From positions 4,662 to 68,661 of the forward strand of contig DATDWB010000028.1 in assembly GCA_035289845.1 (NCBI GenBank): a stretch of 64,000 bases of DNA, written 5' to 3'. This DNA is from Candidatus Nanoarchaeia archaeon (GTDB lineage Archaea; Nanobdellota; Nanobdellia; Woesearchaeales; GW2011-AR9). Within the stretch, counting starts at the first letter, position 1, and each line of letters begins with the position of its first letter. A program made the translations under genes and the position numbers. The notes below the pieces were generated by a model. It was given only the letters and a program-made list of their open reading frames with translations, was not told where the DNA came from and made no database searches. Of the stretch, positions 5,505-45,295 are shown piece by piece.

Positions 5505-6953
5505 ATGTCTTTATATTTATTCAATACTCTGACCAAAAAGAAAGAAAAATTTGTTCCGATATCCAAAAGCAAGGTAGGTCTTTACACCTGCGGCCCAACA
5601 GTTTATAATTCAGCCCATATCGGCAATCTAAGAGCTTACGTGTTTGAAGATGTCTTGAAAAGAACACTTTTTTTTAATGGATTTAAAGTTAAGCATGTCT
5701 TAAACATTACCGATGTTGGCCATTTAACTTCTGATGCTGATGAAGGTGAGGATAAGATGACCAAAGGGTTAAGGAGAGATGGCCTACCATTAACTTTAGC
5801 CGGCATGAAGAAGCTGGCCCAAAAATATACTAATTTGTTTGTTAAGGATATTAAACGACTTAATGTTATTTTGCCGGATGAAATGCCTAAAGCCAGTGAA
5901 AATATTGCAGAGGATATCGATCTGATTGAAAAATTAGATAAAAATGGATTTATCTACCAGATTGAGGATGGTGTTTATTTTGATACTTCCAAGCTGCCAG
6001 ATTATGGCCAGCTGGTAAATGGTAAAATAGATATAGATGAAGGACATCAAAGGATAAAGAAAGGCGGAAAAAAAAATAATAAGGACTTTGCCCTGTGGAA
6101 ATTCAATAATAAGCTGGGTTGGGATTCTAAATATGGTAAAGGTTTTCCCGGCTGGCATATAGAATGTTCAGCCATGGCCACTAAATATTTAGGTGAAAAA
6201 TTTGACATCCACTGCGGTGGTAAAGAACACATTGCAGTGCATCACACTAACGAAATTGCTCAATCAGAAGCGGCTTGGGGCAAGAAACCATGGGTTAAAT
6301 ATTGGCTGCATCATGAATGGTTAGAATTGGGTGGAAAAAAGATGGCCAAGTCTGGAGAAAATTTTATAACCCTATCACTTTTGGAAGAAAAATCATTTTC
6401 TCCATTGGATTTTCGATATTTGTGCTTAGGTACACATTACCGCAAACCGCTAATGTTTAACTATGGTGCTTTGGAAGGGGCAAGCCAAGCTAGAAAAAAA
6501 TTGGAAGAAAAAATGAAGGAATTTAAGTCTGAGTCCAAGATTATAGACTTAAAATCTAATTTATCCAATCCTAAAAAAATAAACAACCCGTTAATTAAAA
6601 AATATCAAGTTAAATTTTCAACTGAAGTTAATGATGACTTAAATACTCCGCAAGCCTTAGCTACCTTATGGGAGGTAATAAAGGACAAACAACTTAATGA
6701 GGGAAGTAAATATTATTTGCTTCTTCAATTTGATCGGATTTTTGGACTCAACTTAGGGCTGCTTAAAAAAGTGCAAAAGCAATTAAAAGTACCGCTTAAA
6801 GTAAAGCAGTTAGCGGAAGAGAGGTTGATTGCCCGCCAAAATAAAGATTGGAAAACAGCCGATAAAATCCGGCAGGAAGTAACTGATTTTGGCTATGTAG
6901 TTGAAGATACAAATGAGGGTTATAAATTCAAGAAGTTAGATGAAGTGAGCTAA
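5505..6953 (+). CDS. cysS: Cysteinyl-tRNA synthetase
   Basis: HIGH region CGPTVYNSAHIGNLR, KMSKS as KMAKSGENF, Zn-binding Cys residues. 482 aa. Confidence 0.92.
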   Translation: MSLYLFNTLTKKKEKFVPISKSKVGLYTCGPTVYNSAHIGNLRAYVFEDVLKRTLFFNGFKVKHVLNITDVGHLTSDADEGEDKMTKGLRRDGLPLTLAGMKKLAQKYTNLFVKDIKRLNVILPDEMPKASENIAEDIDLIEKLDKNGFIYQIEDGVYFDTSKLPDYGQLVNGKIDIDEGHQRIKKGGKKNNKDFALWKFNNKLGWDSKYGKGFPGWHIECSAMATKYLGEKFDIHCGGKEHIAVHHTNEIAQSEAAWGKKPWVKYWLHHEWLELGGKKMAKSGENFITLSLLEEKSFSPLDFRYLCLGTHYRKPLMFNYGALEGASQARKKLEEKMKEFKSESKIIDLKSNLSNPKKINNPLIKKYQVKFSTEVNDDLNTPQALATLWEVIKDKQLNEGSKYYLLLQFDRIFGLNLGLLKKVQKQLKVPLKVKQLAEERLIARQNKDWKTADKIRQEVTDFGYVVEDTNEGYKFKKLDEVS

Positions 6954-20961: not shown

Positions 20962-21108
20962 ATCCAACACCTCAATAGTATATTATTGTACTCTTTTATG
21001 CTTAAATGATGGTTGGTCTTAAAAAGATTTCGGAAATCTAAGCTTATTTAATCTCGTTCTAGGGATTAAACCCCTAGTTAGTTGCAATTGGCGGGCTCGC
21101 TAAACAAT

Positions 21109-21228
21109 AGAGAAGTTTGCATAATTAAATTATTTATCCGCAAACTTCTAAAGAGAATTTGAAATAAACGTAATTTTGGCATTAAACAAACGATATATTT
21201 GCCCAAATTACTATTTTTCAAACTTCTC
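21109..21228. repeat. Composite palindromic repeat unit 1: short element (21109-21149, right arm truncated) fused to a long 77-bp element (21152-21228, TIR AGAGAATTTGAAA/TTTCAAACTTCTC)
   Basis: Direct comparison with copies at 6954, 29513 and 45132. Confidence 0.85.
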
Positions 21229-21262
21229 AATAGTAAAATTTCTACGAAATTTGAAAAATTAT

Positions 21263-21387
21263 AGAGAACTTTGCAAAATTAGATGATTTATTATTAGCAA
21301 ATTTCTAAAGAGAAGTTTGAAATAGTCGTAATTTTGACCTTAAACAAACAATATATTAACCAAAATTACTTTTTTTCAAACTTCTCT
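21263..21387. repeat. Composite palindromic repeat unit 2: short element (21263-21306) plus a long 79-bp element (21309-21387). Exact reverse complement of 45132-45252.
   Basis: Revcomp of 45132-45210 equals 21309-21387 base for base. The adjacent short elements also correspond. Confidence 0.9.
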
Positions 21388-21407
21388 ATAATAAAAAGGC
21401 AGGACGT

Positions 21408-40563: not shown

Positions 40564-42012
40564 ATGAGCGAGGAGGTGGTATCTTTTCTGGACGAAGTAG
40601 AGCGGTTGGCTGCAGCTGCGTATGGTGTTGTGTTGGATTTGCGGTTAGGTTATGGTCGTGACGTTAAATTAGCTCGCAATAATTTAGAAGACTACTTAAC
40701 TCAGGAACGTAACTTTTCTGAACCCGATTCTGCTCTTGTTGTTTATATTTTACAAGATTATTTTACAGCGGAAAATTTGGCGAAGAAGGCAGATCTTTCC
40801 ACAGATAATAAGGATCCAATTGCTGATAATTCTTCGGTATTTCCATTTCAAGCAGATGCTTGGCGGAAAAAAGTGTATACTGCTCGAAAAAGACTCATAG
40901 ATATGAAGGTAGAAACTACATATCGTGCAGCGATGCACAACGCAGATATTGCCGCCAGCCGTTCTGTTGTCGGAGAATTATATGTCATCGAATTTAGAAC
41001 AGAAGGTATTGAAGACAGGCTTCATAATCCCTCCACTTCATCACCAGATGATTTTTTTTACAAGGAAGCTCATCTTAAAGAAAATCTTTATAAGGCGGCA
41101 GAACTCGAGCATCATGATCAACCCCTATTATTGTACAAAACTACTTTTCGTCACTTAGCTAAATCCCGCGGCTGGCATAAATTATCAGATGCCGACTTAG
41201 TTAGGGAATTAGATCACGCGCACGTTCCGCTGGAAGTTGCGAAAGGATGTTTGATGCGTAGGATTGAACGGCCGGCGGTTGGAGCAGGACTGGATATTAC
41301 TATTTCTGGAGATCAACAACATTCTATTCGTGTTACTTCGAACTTGGTGGACGTCGAAGGTAATCTACAATCAGCCTACGCTCAAATTCAGCCGGGCACG
41401 ATGTGTACTGCAGCGGAAATAACTAAAGAACGGCTGACAAACGAATCCCTGCGCCAGCGCGCCTATTATACTGCGAATGGAATAATTTATTGTATGCAGG
41501 ATGGCAAACCGGTGCTGTATATAACCCCCGAAAAAGGTAATTTAGTTTTACGGCATCTTGCTGATGCTCAGAATAGTTCTTATGATCAATTAGTTAATAA
41601 TCATAATTATCGTCCTTCGCTGGACGAAGTTAGTGAGGTAATCTCCCCCGGGCAAGGTGCGGAAAAATTTGATTTGTCGGACTTGGTATTAGCTGGCGGT
41701 AATGATGAATGGCAATATTTTACCATCGGTACGTCGCCTCGGGATTATAGTAAGTTGATTGGAATCGGGAAACGGTTAGCGGAACGAGTTTTTGGCAGCG
41801 GTCCAGATTTTACGGCGGCGATGCAGATGTTCGCTGATGCTGGGATTACAGCAACCAAAATAGGGGTCTTGAAACCGAGTTATGTTGCCAGCAATGCAGG
41901 CACTCCCCTCGGGCGGGCTTCGTGGCTGGATAGTTTCAGCTACAATTCCAGTTTCATTGCCGATGATCGTACTGTAGACATTCTTAACGCCCTGCGTGGG
42001 GTAGCGGGGTAG
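40564..42012 (+). CDS. DGR target (variable) protein, 482 aa, about 50% GC, with the variable repeat at its extreme C-terminus
   Basis: The last 33 codons align to the template repeat upstream of the RT. TR AAY codons are replaced by D/S/Y/I/T codons in this gene. No signal peptide, so likely intracellular. Confidence 0.75.
   Translation: MSEEVVSFLDEVERLAAAAYGVVLDLRLGYGRDVKLARNNLEDYLTQERNFSEPDSALVVYILQDYFTAENLAKKADLSTDNKDPIADNSSVFPFQADAWRKKVYTARKRLIDMKVETTYRAAMHNADIAASRSVVGELYVIEFRTEGIEDRLHNPSTSSPDDFFYKEAHLKENLYKAAELEHHDQPLLLYKTTFRHLAKSRGWHKLSDADLVRELDHAHVPLEVAKGCLMRRIERPAVGAGLDITISGDQQHSIRVTSNLVDVEGNLQSAYAQIQPGTMCTAAEITKERLTNESLRQRAYYTANGIIYCMQDGKPVLYITPEKGNLVLRHLADAQNSSYDQLVNNHNYRPSLDEVSEVISPGQGAEKFDLSDLVLAGGNDEWQYFTIGTSPRDYSKLIGIGKRLAERVFGSGPDFTAAMQMFADAGITATKIGVLKPSYVASNAGTPLGRASWLDSFSYNSSFIADDRTVDILNALRGVAG
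41911..42005 (+). repeat. DGR variable repeat (VR)
   Basis: About 95 nt align to 42342-42436 with roughly 70% identity. 14 of about 28 TR adenines are substituted versus 13 of about 68 non-A positions. Confidence 0.75.
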
Positions 42013-42058
42013 GCGAGCGTACGCGAGCAATCAGATACTCCTGGGCGCCGAAGGCGCC
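42001..42058 (+). promoter_or_regulatory. GC-rich IMH-like segment plus downstream hairpin (GGCGCC-GAA-GGCGCC, 42044-42058) at the VR 3' boundary
   Basis: GGGGTAGCGGGGTAGGCGAGCG followed by a 6-bp GC stem-loop, analogous to the DGR homing cis-elements. Confidence 0.5.
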
Positions 42059-42341
42059 ACTTTTCAGTAGTCAGTTTTTATCGTTGTATATTCAGCTATT
42101 TCAACCTCGAGGTTATAACACCACAATATTCTTAAAATAAATTTATTTTATTGTTAATCTCGGCATATTCCTCTCACAGAGGAAGCTGCTGGGCTACATG
42201 CCATTGGGCCATGGTCGAGGCGACTTGATTATGAAACCCTTATCTCGAACCAGTTCTGGGATGATAAAACAATCGTGACACGATGCTTAAGAGCATTATG
42301 ATTGAAACGGTGAAGAAAATAGAGGCTTGATGGCTACAGCA

Positions 42342-42440
42342 CGGGCGGGCGTCGTGGCTTAACAATTTCAATAACATTTCCTACTTCAATGCCAATGATC
42401 GCAATGTTAACAATCATAACCGCGTGCGTGGAATAATCCA
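42342..42440 (+). repeat. DGR template repeat (TR), extremely rich in AAC/AAT codons
   Basis: In the VR reading frame the TR reads RASWLNNFNNISYFNANDRNVNNHN. It ends about 20 nt before the RT start codon. Confidence 0.75.
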
Positions 42441-42462: not shown

Positions 42463-43615
42463 ATGAAACGACCTTCTAGAAATTTGTGGAATGAACTTTG
42501 CTCCTACCCCAACCTCGAACTTGCCTATAAGAAAGCGCGGAAAGGAAAAACAACACGCGACTACGTCCTTGAATTTGAGCACAATCTTCAAGACAATCTT
42601 TTGCAATTGCGCAGTGATTTGCTGTTTCATTCCTATCGGCCCAAACCACTGCAAACGTTCATTCTTCGTGATCCTAAAACGAGGAAAATTAGCAGGTCGG
42701 CTTTCCGAGATCGGATAGTACATCATGCGCTCTGTAACATTATTGAACAGTTCTTCGAACGAAGTTTTATCTTTGATTCGTACGCCAACCGGAAAGGCAA
42801 AGGCACACTGAAGGCAATAGAGCGTTTTGCACACTTCTCTCGGAAAGTAACTCATAATAACACCCAGCGGGCTTTTGTCTTGAAAGCGGATATAAAACAG
42901 TATTTTGAAAATGTGAATCATGCTCTTCTCCTGGGCATCATCCAGAAAAAAATAAGGGATCAGAAAATACTGTGGCTCATCAAAAAAATTCTTTCCAATT
43001 ATTCCGCCGCAGAAAAAAATGTTGGCATGCCTTTAGGAAATCTCACCTCCCAGTTCACGAGAAAAGACAACGATCTTTTCTGTGCCCTGATAAAGTCGTT
43101 GCTTTATCTTGGGTTTTGCTAATGTCTATCTGCACGAATTAGATCATTATGTCAAACAGCAGTTGAAAGCGAAATACTACGCGCGCTACGTGGACGATTT
43201 TGTGATTCTCGACCGTTCACGGTCAAAACTCGAGAAATACAAGACACACATCGTTTCTTTTCTCGCCACACGACTTGCCTTGCAGCTTCACCCCCAAAAG
43301 TCACGTATCATCAATCTTGAGAGGGGTACAGATTTTCTCGGGATGCGACATTTTCCTCATCATAAACTTATCAAAAAGAAAAATGTACGAAAATTTCGTA
43401 CTAAATTAAGTCTGCTTTCTCTTCGCTTTAAGCAGGGAGAATTATTATATGATAACCTCTACGATTTCATGGAAGGGTGGGTTGCGTATGCCAAGAATGC
43501 CGATACGTACCGATTACGGCAGGGCATTTTAACTGTGTTTGAACAGAATTATCGGCAGGAAATGGCGACTAAGGAGATTAATCGAGGTAAGAATTTTTTA
43601 ATGCCTGCCCTTTAA
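42463..43615 (+). CDS. DGR-type reverse transcriptase, reading frame interrupted by an insertion of about 58 nt between the PLGNLTSQF and FANVYLHELD motifs
   Basis: RT motifs are present: RPKPLQTFILRDPKTRKISR, VLKADIKQYFENVNH, GMPLGNLTSQF / FANVYL, YARYVDDFVIL. Two overlapping ORFs (to 43122; from 43109) reveal the frame break. Confidence 0.75.
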
Positions 43616-43656: not shown

Positions 43657-44034
43657 ATGGCGAAAGAAGAAATAACCCTCTGGATTGAGCAGTCTTTTGA
43701 AGACTTCAAAGCGGCACAATATAATCTAAAAGGTAAACAGTTTCATGTGACAGCCCTTTTAGTCCAGCAGGCAGTGGAAAAGGGATTGAAAGCTCTCTTC
43801 ATTAAAAAATTTGGTGAAGTCCCAAAAGTACACGATTTAGTATTTCTGGCTAAGCGATTAGACCTTCCTGAGAAACTTCTTCACTATTGCAAGAAAATTT
43901 CTCCTTTCTATATTGAAACACGGTATCCTGATGCGAAAGGTTTTAGGAAAACAACTGATTTTACGCTTAACGAGTGTAAAGAAGCTCTTAATAATTGTGA
44001 GGAGATTCTGAGATGGATAAAGCTGAACATTTAG
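43657..44034 (+). CDS. HEPN domain protein (toxin-like partner of the MNT gene)
   Basis: HEPN helical pattern QQAVEKGLKALFIK ... ETRYPD. Overlaps the downstream MNT gene by 22 nt. Confidence 0.7.
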   Translation: MAKEEITLWIEQSFEDFKAAQYNLKGKQFHVTALLVQQAVEKGLKALFIKKFGEVPKVHDLVFLAKRLDLPEKLLHYCKKISPFYIETRYPDAKGFRKTTDFTLNECKEALNNCEEILRWIKLNI

Positions 44035-44330
44035 CCAAACAGCTGAAGGCTTTCAAGAAGGAGGTTTCAAAGAAAATACCTCTCAAAGCCCTGGTCTTTT
44101 TTGGCAGCCGAGCAAAAGGGAAGGGGAAAAAATATAGTGACATCGATTTGTTGGTCGTATCGTCAAAATTCAAGAACAAAAAATTTCACCAGCGCGCAAC
44201 GGCGTTATATGACTATTGGACTTTAGATTATCCGGTTGATTTTCTTTGCTATACACCGGAAGAATTCAATAAAAATAAAAAGATGATTGGCATTGTCCGC
44301 CGCGCAGTTGAAGAAGGAATAAAAATATGA
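44013..44330 (+). CDS. Minimal nucleotidyltransferase (MNT) domain protein
   Basis: GSRAKGKGKKYSDIDLLV (GS...DxD) nucleotidyltransferase signature. 105 aa. Confidence 0.75.
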   Translation: MDKAEHLAKQLKAFKKEVSKKIPLKALVFFGSRAKGKGKKYSDIDLLVVSSKFKNKKFHQRATALYDYWTLDYPVDFLCYTPEEFNKNKKMIGIVRRAVEEGIKI

Positions 44331-45126: not shown

Positions 45127-45131
45127 ATTAT

Positions 45132-45252
45132 AGAGAAGTTTGAAAAAAAGTAATTTTGGTTAATATATTGTTTGTTTAAGGTCAAAATTACGACTATTTC
45201 AAACTTCTCTTTAGAACTTTGCTAATAAATCATCTAATTTTGCAAAGTTCTC
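45132..45252. repeat. Composite palindromic repeat: long 79-bp element (45132-45210) plus a short element (45211-45252). Reverse complement of 21263-21387.
   Basis: Base-for-base revcomp match to the unit-2 array copy. Confidence 0.9.
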
Positions 45253-45295
45253 TATACTATAAAATTTATATATTAGATTTTCTAGCAGTTATTTT

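Follow-up and report, generated by a model that had tools for sequence, protein, structure and literature searches.

Diversity-generating retroelements (DGRs), which are particularly common in DPANN archaea, are the only natural means of targeted protein hypermutation known to date. The locus described here, which lies in a 64,000-nt stretch of archaeal chromosome (hereafter the window), holds a DGR whose reverse transcriptase (RT) gene is cut in two by 58 nt, and it raises the question of what these 58 nt are: a fault of assembly, a chance lesion, a sequence that the cell removes or skips, or a mobile element that has settled in the gene. We prefer, with a probability of roughly 0.6, the last of these, in the form of a small non-autonomous mobile element that inserted recently and site-specifically and thereby inactivated the RT.

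The RT gene is split by a 58-nt insert

The features of the split gene are as follows.

42463 to 43056, + strand: 5' part of the RT gene, residues 1-198, ending ...GMPLGNLTSQF; alternative start GTG 42424
43057 to 43114 (equivalently 43056 to 43113), + strand: the 58-nt insert, an RT-type double-hairpin element; the open reading frame is restored on its removal; covariance model 86.9 bits, E = 5e-20
43056 to 43084, + strand: hairpin 1 of the insert, CAC-G-AGAAAAGA / loop CAACGA / TCTTTTCT-GTG, present in the MFE folds, with family covariation in helices 1 and 2
43085 to 43113, + strand: hairpin 2 of the insert, CCC-N-GATAAAGU / loop CGUU / GCUUUAUC-UU-GGG, present in the MFE folds
43115 to 43615, + strand: 3' part of the RT gene, FANVYLHELDHYV...YVDD..., in the +1 frame relative to the 5' part
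43120 to 43122, + strand: premature UAA stop, met when the upstream frame reads through the insert

The upstream frame (ORF A, from GTG 42424 or ATG 42463 to 43122) reads ...GMPLGNLTSQF and then passes into 21 unrelated codons (TRKDNDLFCALIKSLLYLGFC) before the UAA at 43120-43122. An earlier note on this DNA, made from the sequence alone, had counted 19 unrelated codons up to the stop; the tail in fact consists of 19 codons and one further base of the insert, followed by two out-of-frame host codons. The same note had the RT resume in the +1 frame, as it does: ORF B is called from a TTG at 43109, and its homologous part (FANVYLHELDHYV..., that is, FANVYL...) begins at 43115. Exact removal of 58 nt (43057-43114 or, equivalently, 43056-43113) joins the two ORFs into an open RT of 364 aa (...NLTSQFFANVYL...) with the junction ...GNLTSQF|FANVYL..., so that the interruption by 58 nt claimed at the outset is confirmed in kind and in length, and only its placement at 43058-43115 was off by one base.

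A check of the junction against orthologous DGR RTs, which the note had proposed, finds it unbroken in L001-L004, L006 and L007, and structure comparison finds it contiguous also in the solved Bordetella DGR RT (8ub7). Residues 3-332 of the repaired RT align to this Bordetella bRT with E = 1.4e-49, GMPLGNLTSQFFANVY standing opposite GIPIGSLTSQLFANVY; the repaired protein also matches Pfam RVT_1 and carries the (I/L)GxxxSQ motif that marks RTs of the DGR clade. Its closest full-length relative among 5.8 billion protein clusters is 66% identical, and neither these clusters nor exact look-ups of the repaired proteins returned an intact allele of the window RT. What the window contains is not the continuous, translatable RT gene that a DGR should have: the insert shifts the frame to the stop at 43120, and the RT is cut short inside a motif which all relatives and the solved DGR RT have uninterrupted.

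Directly 3' of the RT, positions 43657-44330 encode a HEPN-domain protein and an MntA-like nucleotidyltransferase, a type VII toxin-antitoxin-like pair.

An assembly or sequencing error, which the earlier note had listed among its explanations, is rejected. The same DNA has been assembled from at least six samples, is 99.8-100% identical across the region and contains the insert in all of them, and both RT fragments are found in ENA, NCBI, JGI and Logan assemblies (the NCBI annotation is Candidatus Nanoarchaeia). An artefact would have had to give identical junctions in at least six independent assemblies, which differ in sample and in assembler, and again in five further diverged lineages; its probability is negligible, and nothing speaks for it except the prior suspicion voiced in that note. 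The 58-nt insertion is real, and it is fixed in this population.

The same insert occupies the same nucleotide in other RT lineages

When the N-terminal RT fragment, including its frameshifted tail, was used as the query, the top non-self matches were four proteins of ~220 aa (P0132-P0135) that are 68-73% identical and all end in the tail TRKDNDLFCA.IKSLLYLG.C. Their DNA (L015-L021), together with that of one further lineage from a metagenome scan (L025), shows that at least six RT lineages, at 62-80% protein identity, contain a near-invariant insert, placed at an identical nucleotide and oriented alike. In the flanking codons almost all synonymous sites differ, and conservation begins and ends abruptly at the insert boundaries.

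Empty sites read CAR TTC|TTT GCN AAT (L030, L031, L001-L004), which encodes NLTSQF|FAN, the catalytic-core motif of DGR RTs, and filled sites are longer by exactly 58 nt. Filled and empty sites occur in close relatives (L019 vs L030, L015 vs L031), with a clean difference of 58 nt. The target-site duplication that classical MITEs leave is absent, the ambiguity of the boundaries being at most 1 nt. Co-conversion tracts, which would be a sign of homologous recombination, were considered and rejected, because the flanks differ right up to the junction.

The L015 RT is nearest to insert-free RTs, including P0067 (85%), and the L019 RT is nearest to the insert-free P0020 (87%); L015 and L019 are 80% identical to each other, and the RTs of the window and of L021 are ~62-66% identical to everything else. 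Judged by these identities, the insert-bearing RTs are not one clade but are interleaved with empty-site relatives. This bears on an older history for the insert, namely a single ancient insertion followed by vertical descent, with near-invariance maintained by selection and with precise loss in most RT lineages. The shared site and orientation, and the fact that the few variable positions are mostly unpaired, would agree with such a history. We nevertheless consider it very unlikely, since filled genes interleaved with empty-site genes at 85-87% identity would demand many independent precise losses, and since the stems are invariant among the RT copies though free to covary across the family, which fits recent spread better than a structural constraint acting over long times. 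The exact same position of the RT is occupied again and again in DPANN DGRs, which gives the insert more interest than an isolated lesion would have.

In L025 the RT gene has another insertion as well, a ~187-nt composite of small repeats like those described below, located ~60 nt upstream of the 58-nt insert; joining the sequence across it restores IWL(I/V)KTILSNY. Disruptions of other kinds were also seen. The insert-free RT of L027 (~3580), as well as of L028 and L029 (protein P0136), is short of 1 nt (T6 to T5, CAGTTTTTGCAG) at precisely the position of the insertion; such a deficit equals the removal of a 59-nt unit, 43056-43114 in the window, and could be an excision footprint or, equally, the result of homopolymer slippage. 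Two more DPANN DGR RTs (L005 ~1140-1170, and protein P0197) have a simple frameshift in an A-rich run just 5' of GMPLGNLTSQ. RT genes of this clade seem often to be disrupted near motif 4.

The searches beyond these lineages were negative: viral contigs scanned for the element gave no match, a short-peptide search with the translated tail gave no candidates, and an exhaustive HMMER search with the junction peptide returned unrelated repeat proteins only.

The insert belongs to a dispersed family of double hairpins

The insert is predicted to fold into two abutting 29-nt hairpins (z = -4.6), and none of 200 shuffles folds as well. Among the RT copies the invariant core is AGAAAAGACAACGATCTTTTCTGTGCCC-N-GATAAAGTCGTTGCTTTATC; the variable positions are 43059 and 43088, both of which are predicted to be unpaired, and 43109-43114, at the base of the hairpin-2 stem. 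The apical TCGTTG of hairpin 2 is the reverse complement of the hairpin-1 loop, a complementarity (CAACGA/UCGUUG) that exists because hairpin 2 is an inverted version of the hairpin-1 type. Loop-loop kissing between the two was rejected, as the changes seen in L026 are not compensatory. No Rfam family covers the insert.

A covariance model of the two hairpins was used to find related copies, one of which lies in the window itself.

2712 to 2772, no strand assigned: second, diverged member of the family, intergenic, ~40 kb from the DGR; 51.9 bits, E = 4e-11

Further matches to the model occur in L005, L015 (two more), L021, L025, L026 and L031. Going by sequence and predicted fold, the 58-nt insert and these copies form one family of ~60-nt double-hairpin repeats, scattered through DPANN (Nanoarchaeota/Woesearchaeota-type) genomes, with the multiple dispersed, related copies and conserved hairpins that characterize MITE- and REP-like elements. 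The 'tiny intervening element' that had been among the suggestions of the earlier note is apt in this descriptive sense, as a 58-nt double-hairpin element from a repeat family.

The loops are conserved across the family (CAACGA and TAGTTT, or their reverse complements), as are junction motifs of the form G[C/T]GC...TGC. The stems vary between copies yet remain complementary: in the family alignment 93% of cells are paired, compared with 37-57% with slid partners, and 18 of the 22 pairs change on both sides. The observed covariation was reached by 0 of 500 shuffles, with an alignment that was fitted to the model and that holds both strands of each palindromic copy. Within the family, the RT-type element stands out as a variant with an inverted hairpin-1 loop on hairpin 2.

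The RT-type 58-mer is not confined to RT genes, as copies that are 96% identical lie in non-coding DNA of L023 and L026. There the element sits within a structured domain of ~165-265 nt that is closed by a long stem, and in L026 this domain is found ~265 nt upstream of an archaeal 16S rRNA gene. The domain (L026 425-690; L023 6910-7115, - strand) has the stem AAAAGUCGUCUUGGCC / GGCCUAGACGAC.ACUUUU, with fold z-scores of -6.6 and -4.4, respectively, and in L026 it combines the RT-type element with a generic copy of the family.

Could the insert be removed or bypassed?

An insert that restores the frame exactly when taken out might be a true intervening sequence, either an unconventional archaeal mini-intron or a segment that is passed by a ribosomal hop or a +1 frameshift, with the RT still being made; the element would in that case have homed, like an intron or intein, to an invariant target, which would account for its place in the most conserved motif. 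Several observations are in line with this idea. The site, the orientation and the length of 58 nt with exact restoration of the frame are identical in six lineages, the insert has a strong and conserved structure, and in four complete genes both RT halves are fully open (N/S 0.3-0.5). In addition, tRNA-Phe decodes both the UUC before the insert and the UUU after it, all copies have a +1 slip site of the form [C/U]UU_UGC, and in the window alone the exon sequence CCCAG can pair with UUGGG of the insert. We nonetheless think it unlikely that the RT is made in this way, for reasons that concern each of the conceivable routes.

For splicing, a search for a canonical BHB intron was made both by hand and by a systematic scan. 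None of the 209 frame-restoring splice pairs has a complete 4-bp central helix with flanking helices in all five genes, a conserved arrangement of two 3-nt bulges around a 4-bp helix is lacking, and the better candidates all lie away from the true junction; the exon-insert pairing of the window, moreover, is lost in L015 and L019. For a hop of the gene 60 type, the stimulatory signals are absent: the codon after the take-off site is ACG, ACA or ACC, neither a stop nor rare, and GGG stands 1-2 nt before the landing codon instead of the 5-7 nt of a mini-SD. UUC (43054-56) and UUU (43115-17) are Phe codons in all copies, but they are the host's own FF codons, and a hop from one to the other would remove one Phe from the invariant motif. 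A +1 frameshift at [C/U]UU_UGC likewise lacks stimulatory signals and would leave 19 extra amino acids in a motif that is contiguous in 8ub7. A split RT that re-initiates at TTG 43109 was also considered and set aside, as the start is not conserved (L015 has TCT). Three further observations tell against an intervening sequence of any sort, namely the presence of the same element in non-coding DNA as one of a family of intergenic repeats, the non-adenine TR/VR drift in insert-bearing DGRs (see below), and the fact that no protein in a 15-billion-protein collection matches a spliced-type RT product.

The insert might instead be a reversible switch, such that its precise excision from the DNA in some cells turns on a DGR mutagenesis that is normally off; frequent precise losses, along with gains, would in that case account for the scattered distribution of the insert. 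The insertion is seamless, without duplication, so that precise excision would restore the gene, and the element has terminal hairpins and lies between intact RT ORFs. A Logan contig (L012) that ends at 43058, the 5' edge of the insert, and the T6 to T5 change of L027-L029, which matches removal of the unit 43056-43114, could be read as traces of excision. We hold a switch to be quite improbable, however, as no empty-site allele of any interrupted lineage was found in the protein cluster search or by exact look-ups, the VR is invariant between strain variants while TR and VR have drifted, and no transposase is present among the 40 largest ORFs of the window; the contig end and the T-run deletion may have trivial explanations, low coverage and homopolymer slippage, respectively. 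More broadly, the insert may be pictured as a homing mini-element of DGR RT genes that would be removed or skipped by a mechanism that is neither BHB splicing nor gene 60-type hopping, or else excised from DNA, and that would act as an on/off gate on hypermutation in DPANN archaea. This picture we regard as doubtful.

State of the DGR and age of the insertion

The template and variable repeats (TR and VR) are arranged in the window as follows.

41910 to 41999, + strand: VR, at the 3' end of a 482-aa target gene (40564-42012); 74% identical to TR
42165 to 42315, + strand: structured RNA motif resembling RT-11, located between VR and TR; its Rfam match (RF03106, 69 bits, E = 8.9e-14) falls short of the gathering score of 143.5
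42342 to 42431, + strand: TR, rich in AAY codons

The RT gene is directly downstream of the TR, and the RT-11-like motif is probably part of the DGR non-coding RNA. A weaker match to RT-16 (RF03019) overlaps this motif.

TR and VR of the window differ at 11 of 24 A positions and at 12 of 66 non-A positions, and the differences are thus not confined to TR adenines in the manner of a DGR. Seven of the twelve are synonymous third-position changes, and the description of the TR/VR differences as non-adenine and largely synonymous, given in the earlier note, is accurate. The non-A differences between TR and VR in the DGRs that were scored are:

window, with insert: 12/66 (7 synonymous)
L015, with insert: 5/56
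L030, without insert: 0/53
L031, without insert: 0/56
L002, without insert: 0/57
L003, without insert: 0/58

Summed, this is 17/122 for the insert-bearing DGRs, only two of which were scored, against 0/224 for the four insert-free ones, and the pattern of the latter is the signature of recent mutagenic homing. Strain variants in the window population differ in other parts of the target gene but have the same VR. The loss of adenine-specific correspondence between TR and VR fits a knock-out of the RT, and the insert most likely switches the mutator off. What the earlier note had called a recent inactivating insertion in a DGR that stopped homing holds in outline, given a broken frame, searches for recoding and splicing signals that found none, TR/VR drift at non-A positions and an RT that is otherwise intact. 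The VR of L015, it should be noted, is a perfect adenine-only derivative of an L030-type TR and not of its own adjacent TR, and its mismatch to the adjacent TR may therefore mean recombination or a second DGR rather than loss of the RT.

With respect to age, all four of the completely sequenced interrupted RTs are open on both sides of the insert, and lineage-specific N/S is 0.2-0.5 on insert-bearing and insert-free branches, with a neutral expectation of roughly 3; the insertions would therefore be recent in comparison with those branches. That the insert, with its stems, is invariant in hosts whose synonymous divergence is saturated also points to recent insertion. Two points nevertheless weigh against the reading that we favour. 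One is the same set of open frames and low N/S (0.3-0.5 in the four interrupted RTs), and the other is that 18% TR/VR non-A divergence in the window goes with an RT that has no other lesion: either homing had stopped long before the insertion, or the RT has stayed under selection despite the insert.

The DGRs of the L015 clade are laid out differently, with the TR downstream of the RT on the opposite strand and with two generic double-hairpin copies right after the end of the VR, in the IMH region (in L015, TR 6187-6268, VR 6705-6786 and hairpin copies at 6554-6614 and 6640-6700). A conserved motif, GGCGAGCGTA[A/C]GCGAGCA, is found both in the window at 42012-42029, directly 3' of the VR-bearing gene, and in L015 at 6621-6636 (- strand), between the hairpin copies downstream of the VR. 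Two Logan contigs end at marked positions of the DGR, L012 at window position 43058 (the 5' edge of the insert) and L011 at 41903 (the start of the VR); these ends may reflect population heterogeneity there, or chance in low-coverage data.

Target site and a possible mobilizing enzyme

The 5' flank of the insert is always YARTTC, with RTTC conserved, and the flanks in L026, AGTTC|TTCGCAAA, resemble those of the RT site, AGTTC|TTTGCAAA. Ten other TCNYARTTC sites in the window are unoccupied, and a preference for a flank of 4-9 nt cannot on its own explain why six of six insertions are at one site.

Based on these observations we can present a proposal for how the RT gene came to be split. The 58 nt would be one copy of a mobile element that is small, non-coding and non-autonomous and that consists of two hairpins side by side. 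A near-invariant subfamily of it would insert, without target duplication and in one orientation, at CAR TTC^TTT GCN AAT. The insertions would have been independent and recent, each would abolish the function of the RT, and the VR would no longer be rewritten by the DGR. An enzyme whose gene lies elsewhere would mobilize the element in trans, possibly a hairpin-recognizing, single-strand transposase of the HUH/Y1 type; this notion is prompted by the hairpins at the ends, by the absence of a duplication and by the conserved 5' RTTC. IS200/IS605-type elements (PATEs) have hairpins at both ends, insert 3' of a short conserved target and leave no duplication. The present element has hairpins at both ends, a constant RTTC (YARTTC) on its 5' side and no duplication, but its hairpins are immediately at the ends, and its target preference is far stricter than 4-5 nt.

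The 40 largest ORFs of the 64-kb window include no transposase, HUH enzyme, integrase or homing endonuclease, and the window is an ordinary piece of DPANN chromosome, with genes for tRNA synthetases, proteasome, exosome, RFC and Orc1/Cdc6. Free-standing proteins with a LAGLIDADG_3 domain are encoded within a few kb of two DGR RT loci (L015 126-806, L027 4143-5327).

Comparison with known systems

Short, non-coding, hairpin-forming and dispersed elements that occasionally lie inside coding sequence are known from several sources, among them REP/REPIN sequences, the IS200/IS605-derived PATEs and the Rickettsia palindromic elements. The present element resembles these, as well as the GC clusters and the mitochondrial elements for which 'double-hairpin elements' is the attested class name, in being tens of nucleotides long, in forming hairpins and in having many copies with filled and empty sites; with the mitochondrial double-hairpin elements it shares the same two-hairpin layout. 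It differs from other small palindromic repeats in its DPANN host and in that one subfamily has extreme specificity, of site and of orientation, for the sequence encoding a single protein motif in diverged genes. Tolerance as an in-frame peptide, as in the case of the Rickettsia elements, is impossible here, because the length of the insert is not a multiple of three.

A second comparison is with the bypass cassette of T4 gene 60 and the MobA element, which is ~1.1 kb long and encodes its own HNH homing endonuclease, and whose cassette has a stop or 'hungry' codon after take-off, a mini-SD 5-7 nt before landing and nascent-peptide signals (Manning & Atkins, bioRxiv 10.1101/2022.08.31.505936). 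MobA has inserted repeatedly and independently at one position of a conserved enzyme gene, with empty-site relatives and clean break points (bioRxiv 10.1101/2022.08.31.505936). The DGR insert is similarly a short, structured, frame-breaking sequence that is conserved, recurs at the same position and has close relatives with an empty site, but it comes without a linked endonuclease and without bypass signals.

Archaeal BHB introns exist in protein-coding genes, for example crenarchaeal cbf5, and the insert is like them in its archaeal host, in its similar size range, in being structured and in restoring the frame upon exact removal. It is unlike them in that it has no conserved 3-4-3 bulge-helix-bulge at its junctions and in that it also occurs between genes, as part of a repeat family. 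Finally, the window shares with decaying or domesticated DGRs a broken RT ORF, non-adenine TR/VR differences and a VR that is invariant between strains, but the lesion is not a random one, as the same mobile insert is present at the same base in many lineages.

The repeated landing of the element on the bases that encode the catalytic motif of an RT would represent either a previously unrecognized way in which mutators are shut down or gated in nature, or a new example of the intron- and intein-like strategy of hiding in an invariant site, used in this case by a 58-nt non-coding element without an enzyme of its own. There is also a practical side. Split RTs are called as two truncated genes, so that DGR surveys will miscount them, and the invariant 58-mer is a simple marker by which they can be recognized. 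The double-hairpin family as a whole, in which loops are conserved and stems covary freely, is an uncharacterized feature of DPANN genomes.

Other repeats in the window

The diverged family member at 2712-2772 forms, with ~2934-2973, a small cluster of palindromic repeats between the genes for a PAN-like ATPase and a transglutaminase-like protein. A different short palindrome, CCCCACAGCTCTGCTGCGATTGGGATTTTTT, is also part of this cluster, and two copies of it lie in the ~187-nt insertion of the L025 RT. An intergenic repeat of ~130 nt, which has no relation to the 58-nt element, is present in three copies, at 45127-45256, 21260-21392 and 21107-21232; relative to the first of these, the other two are both inverted and are 97% and 86% identical, respectively.
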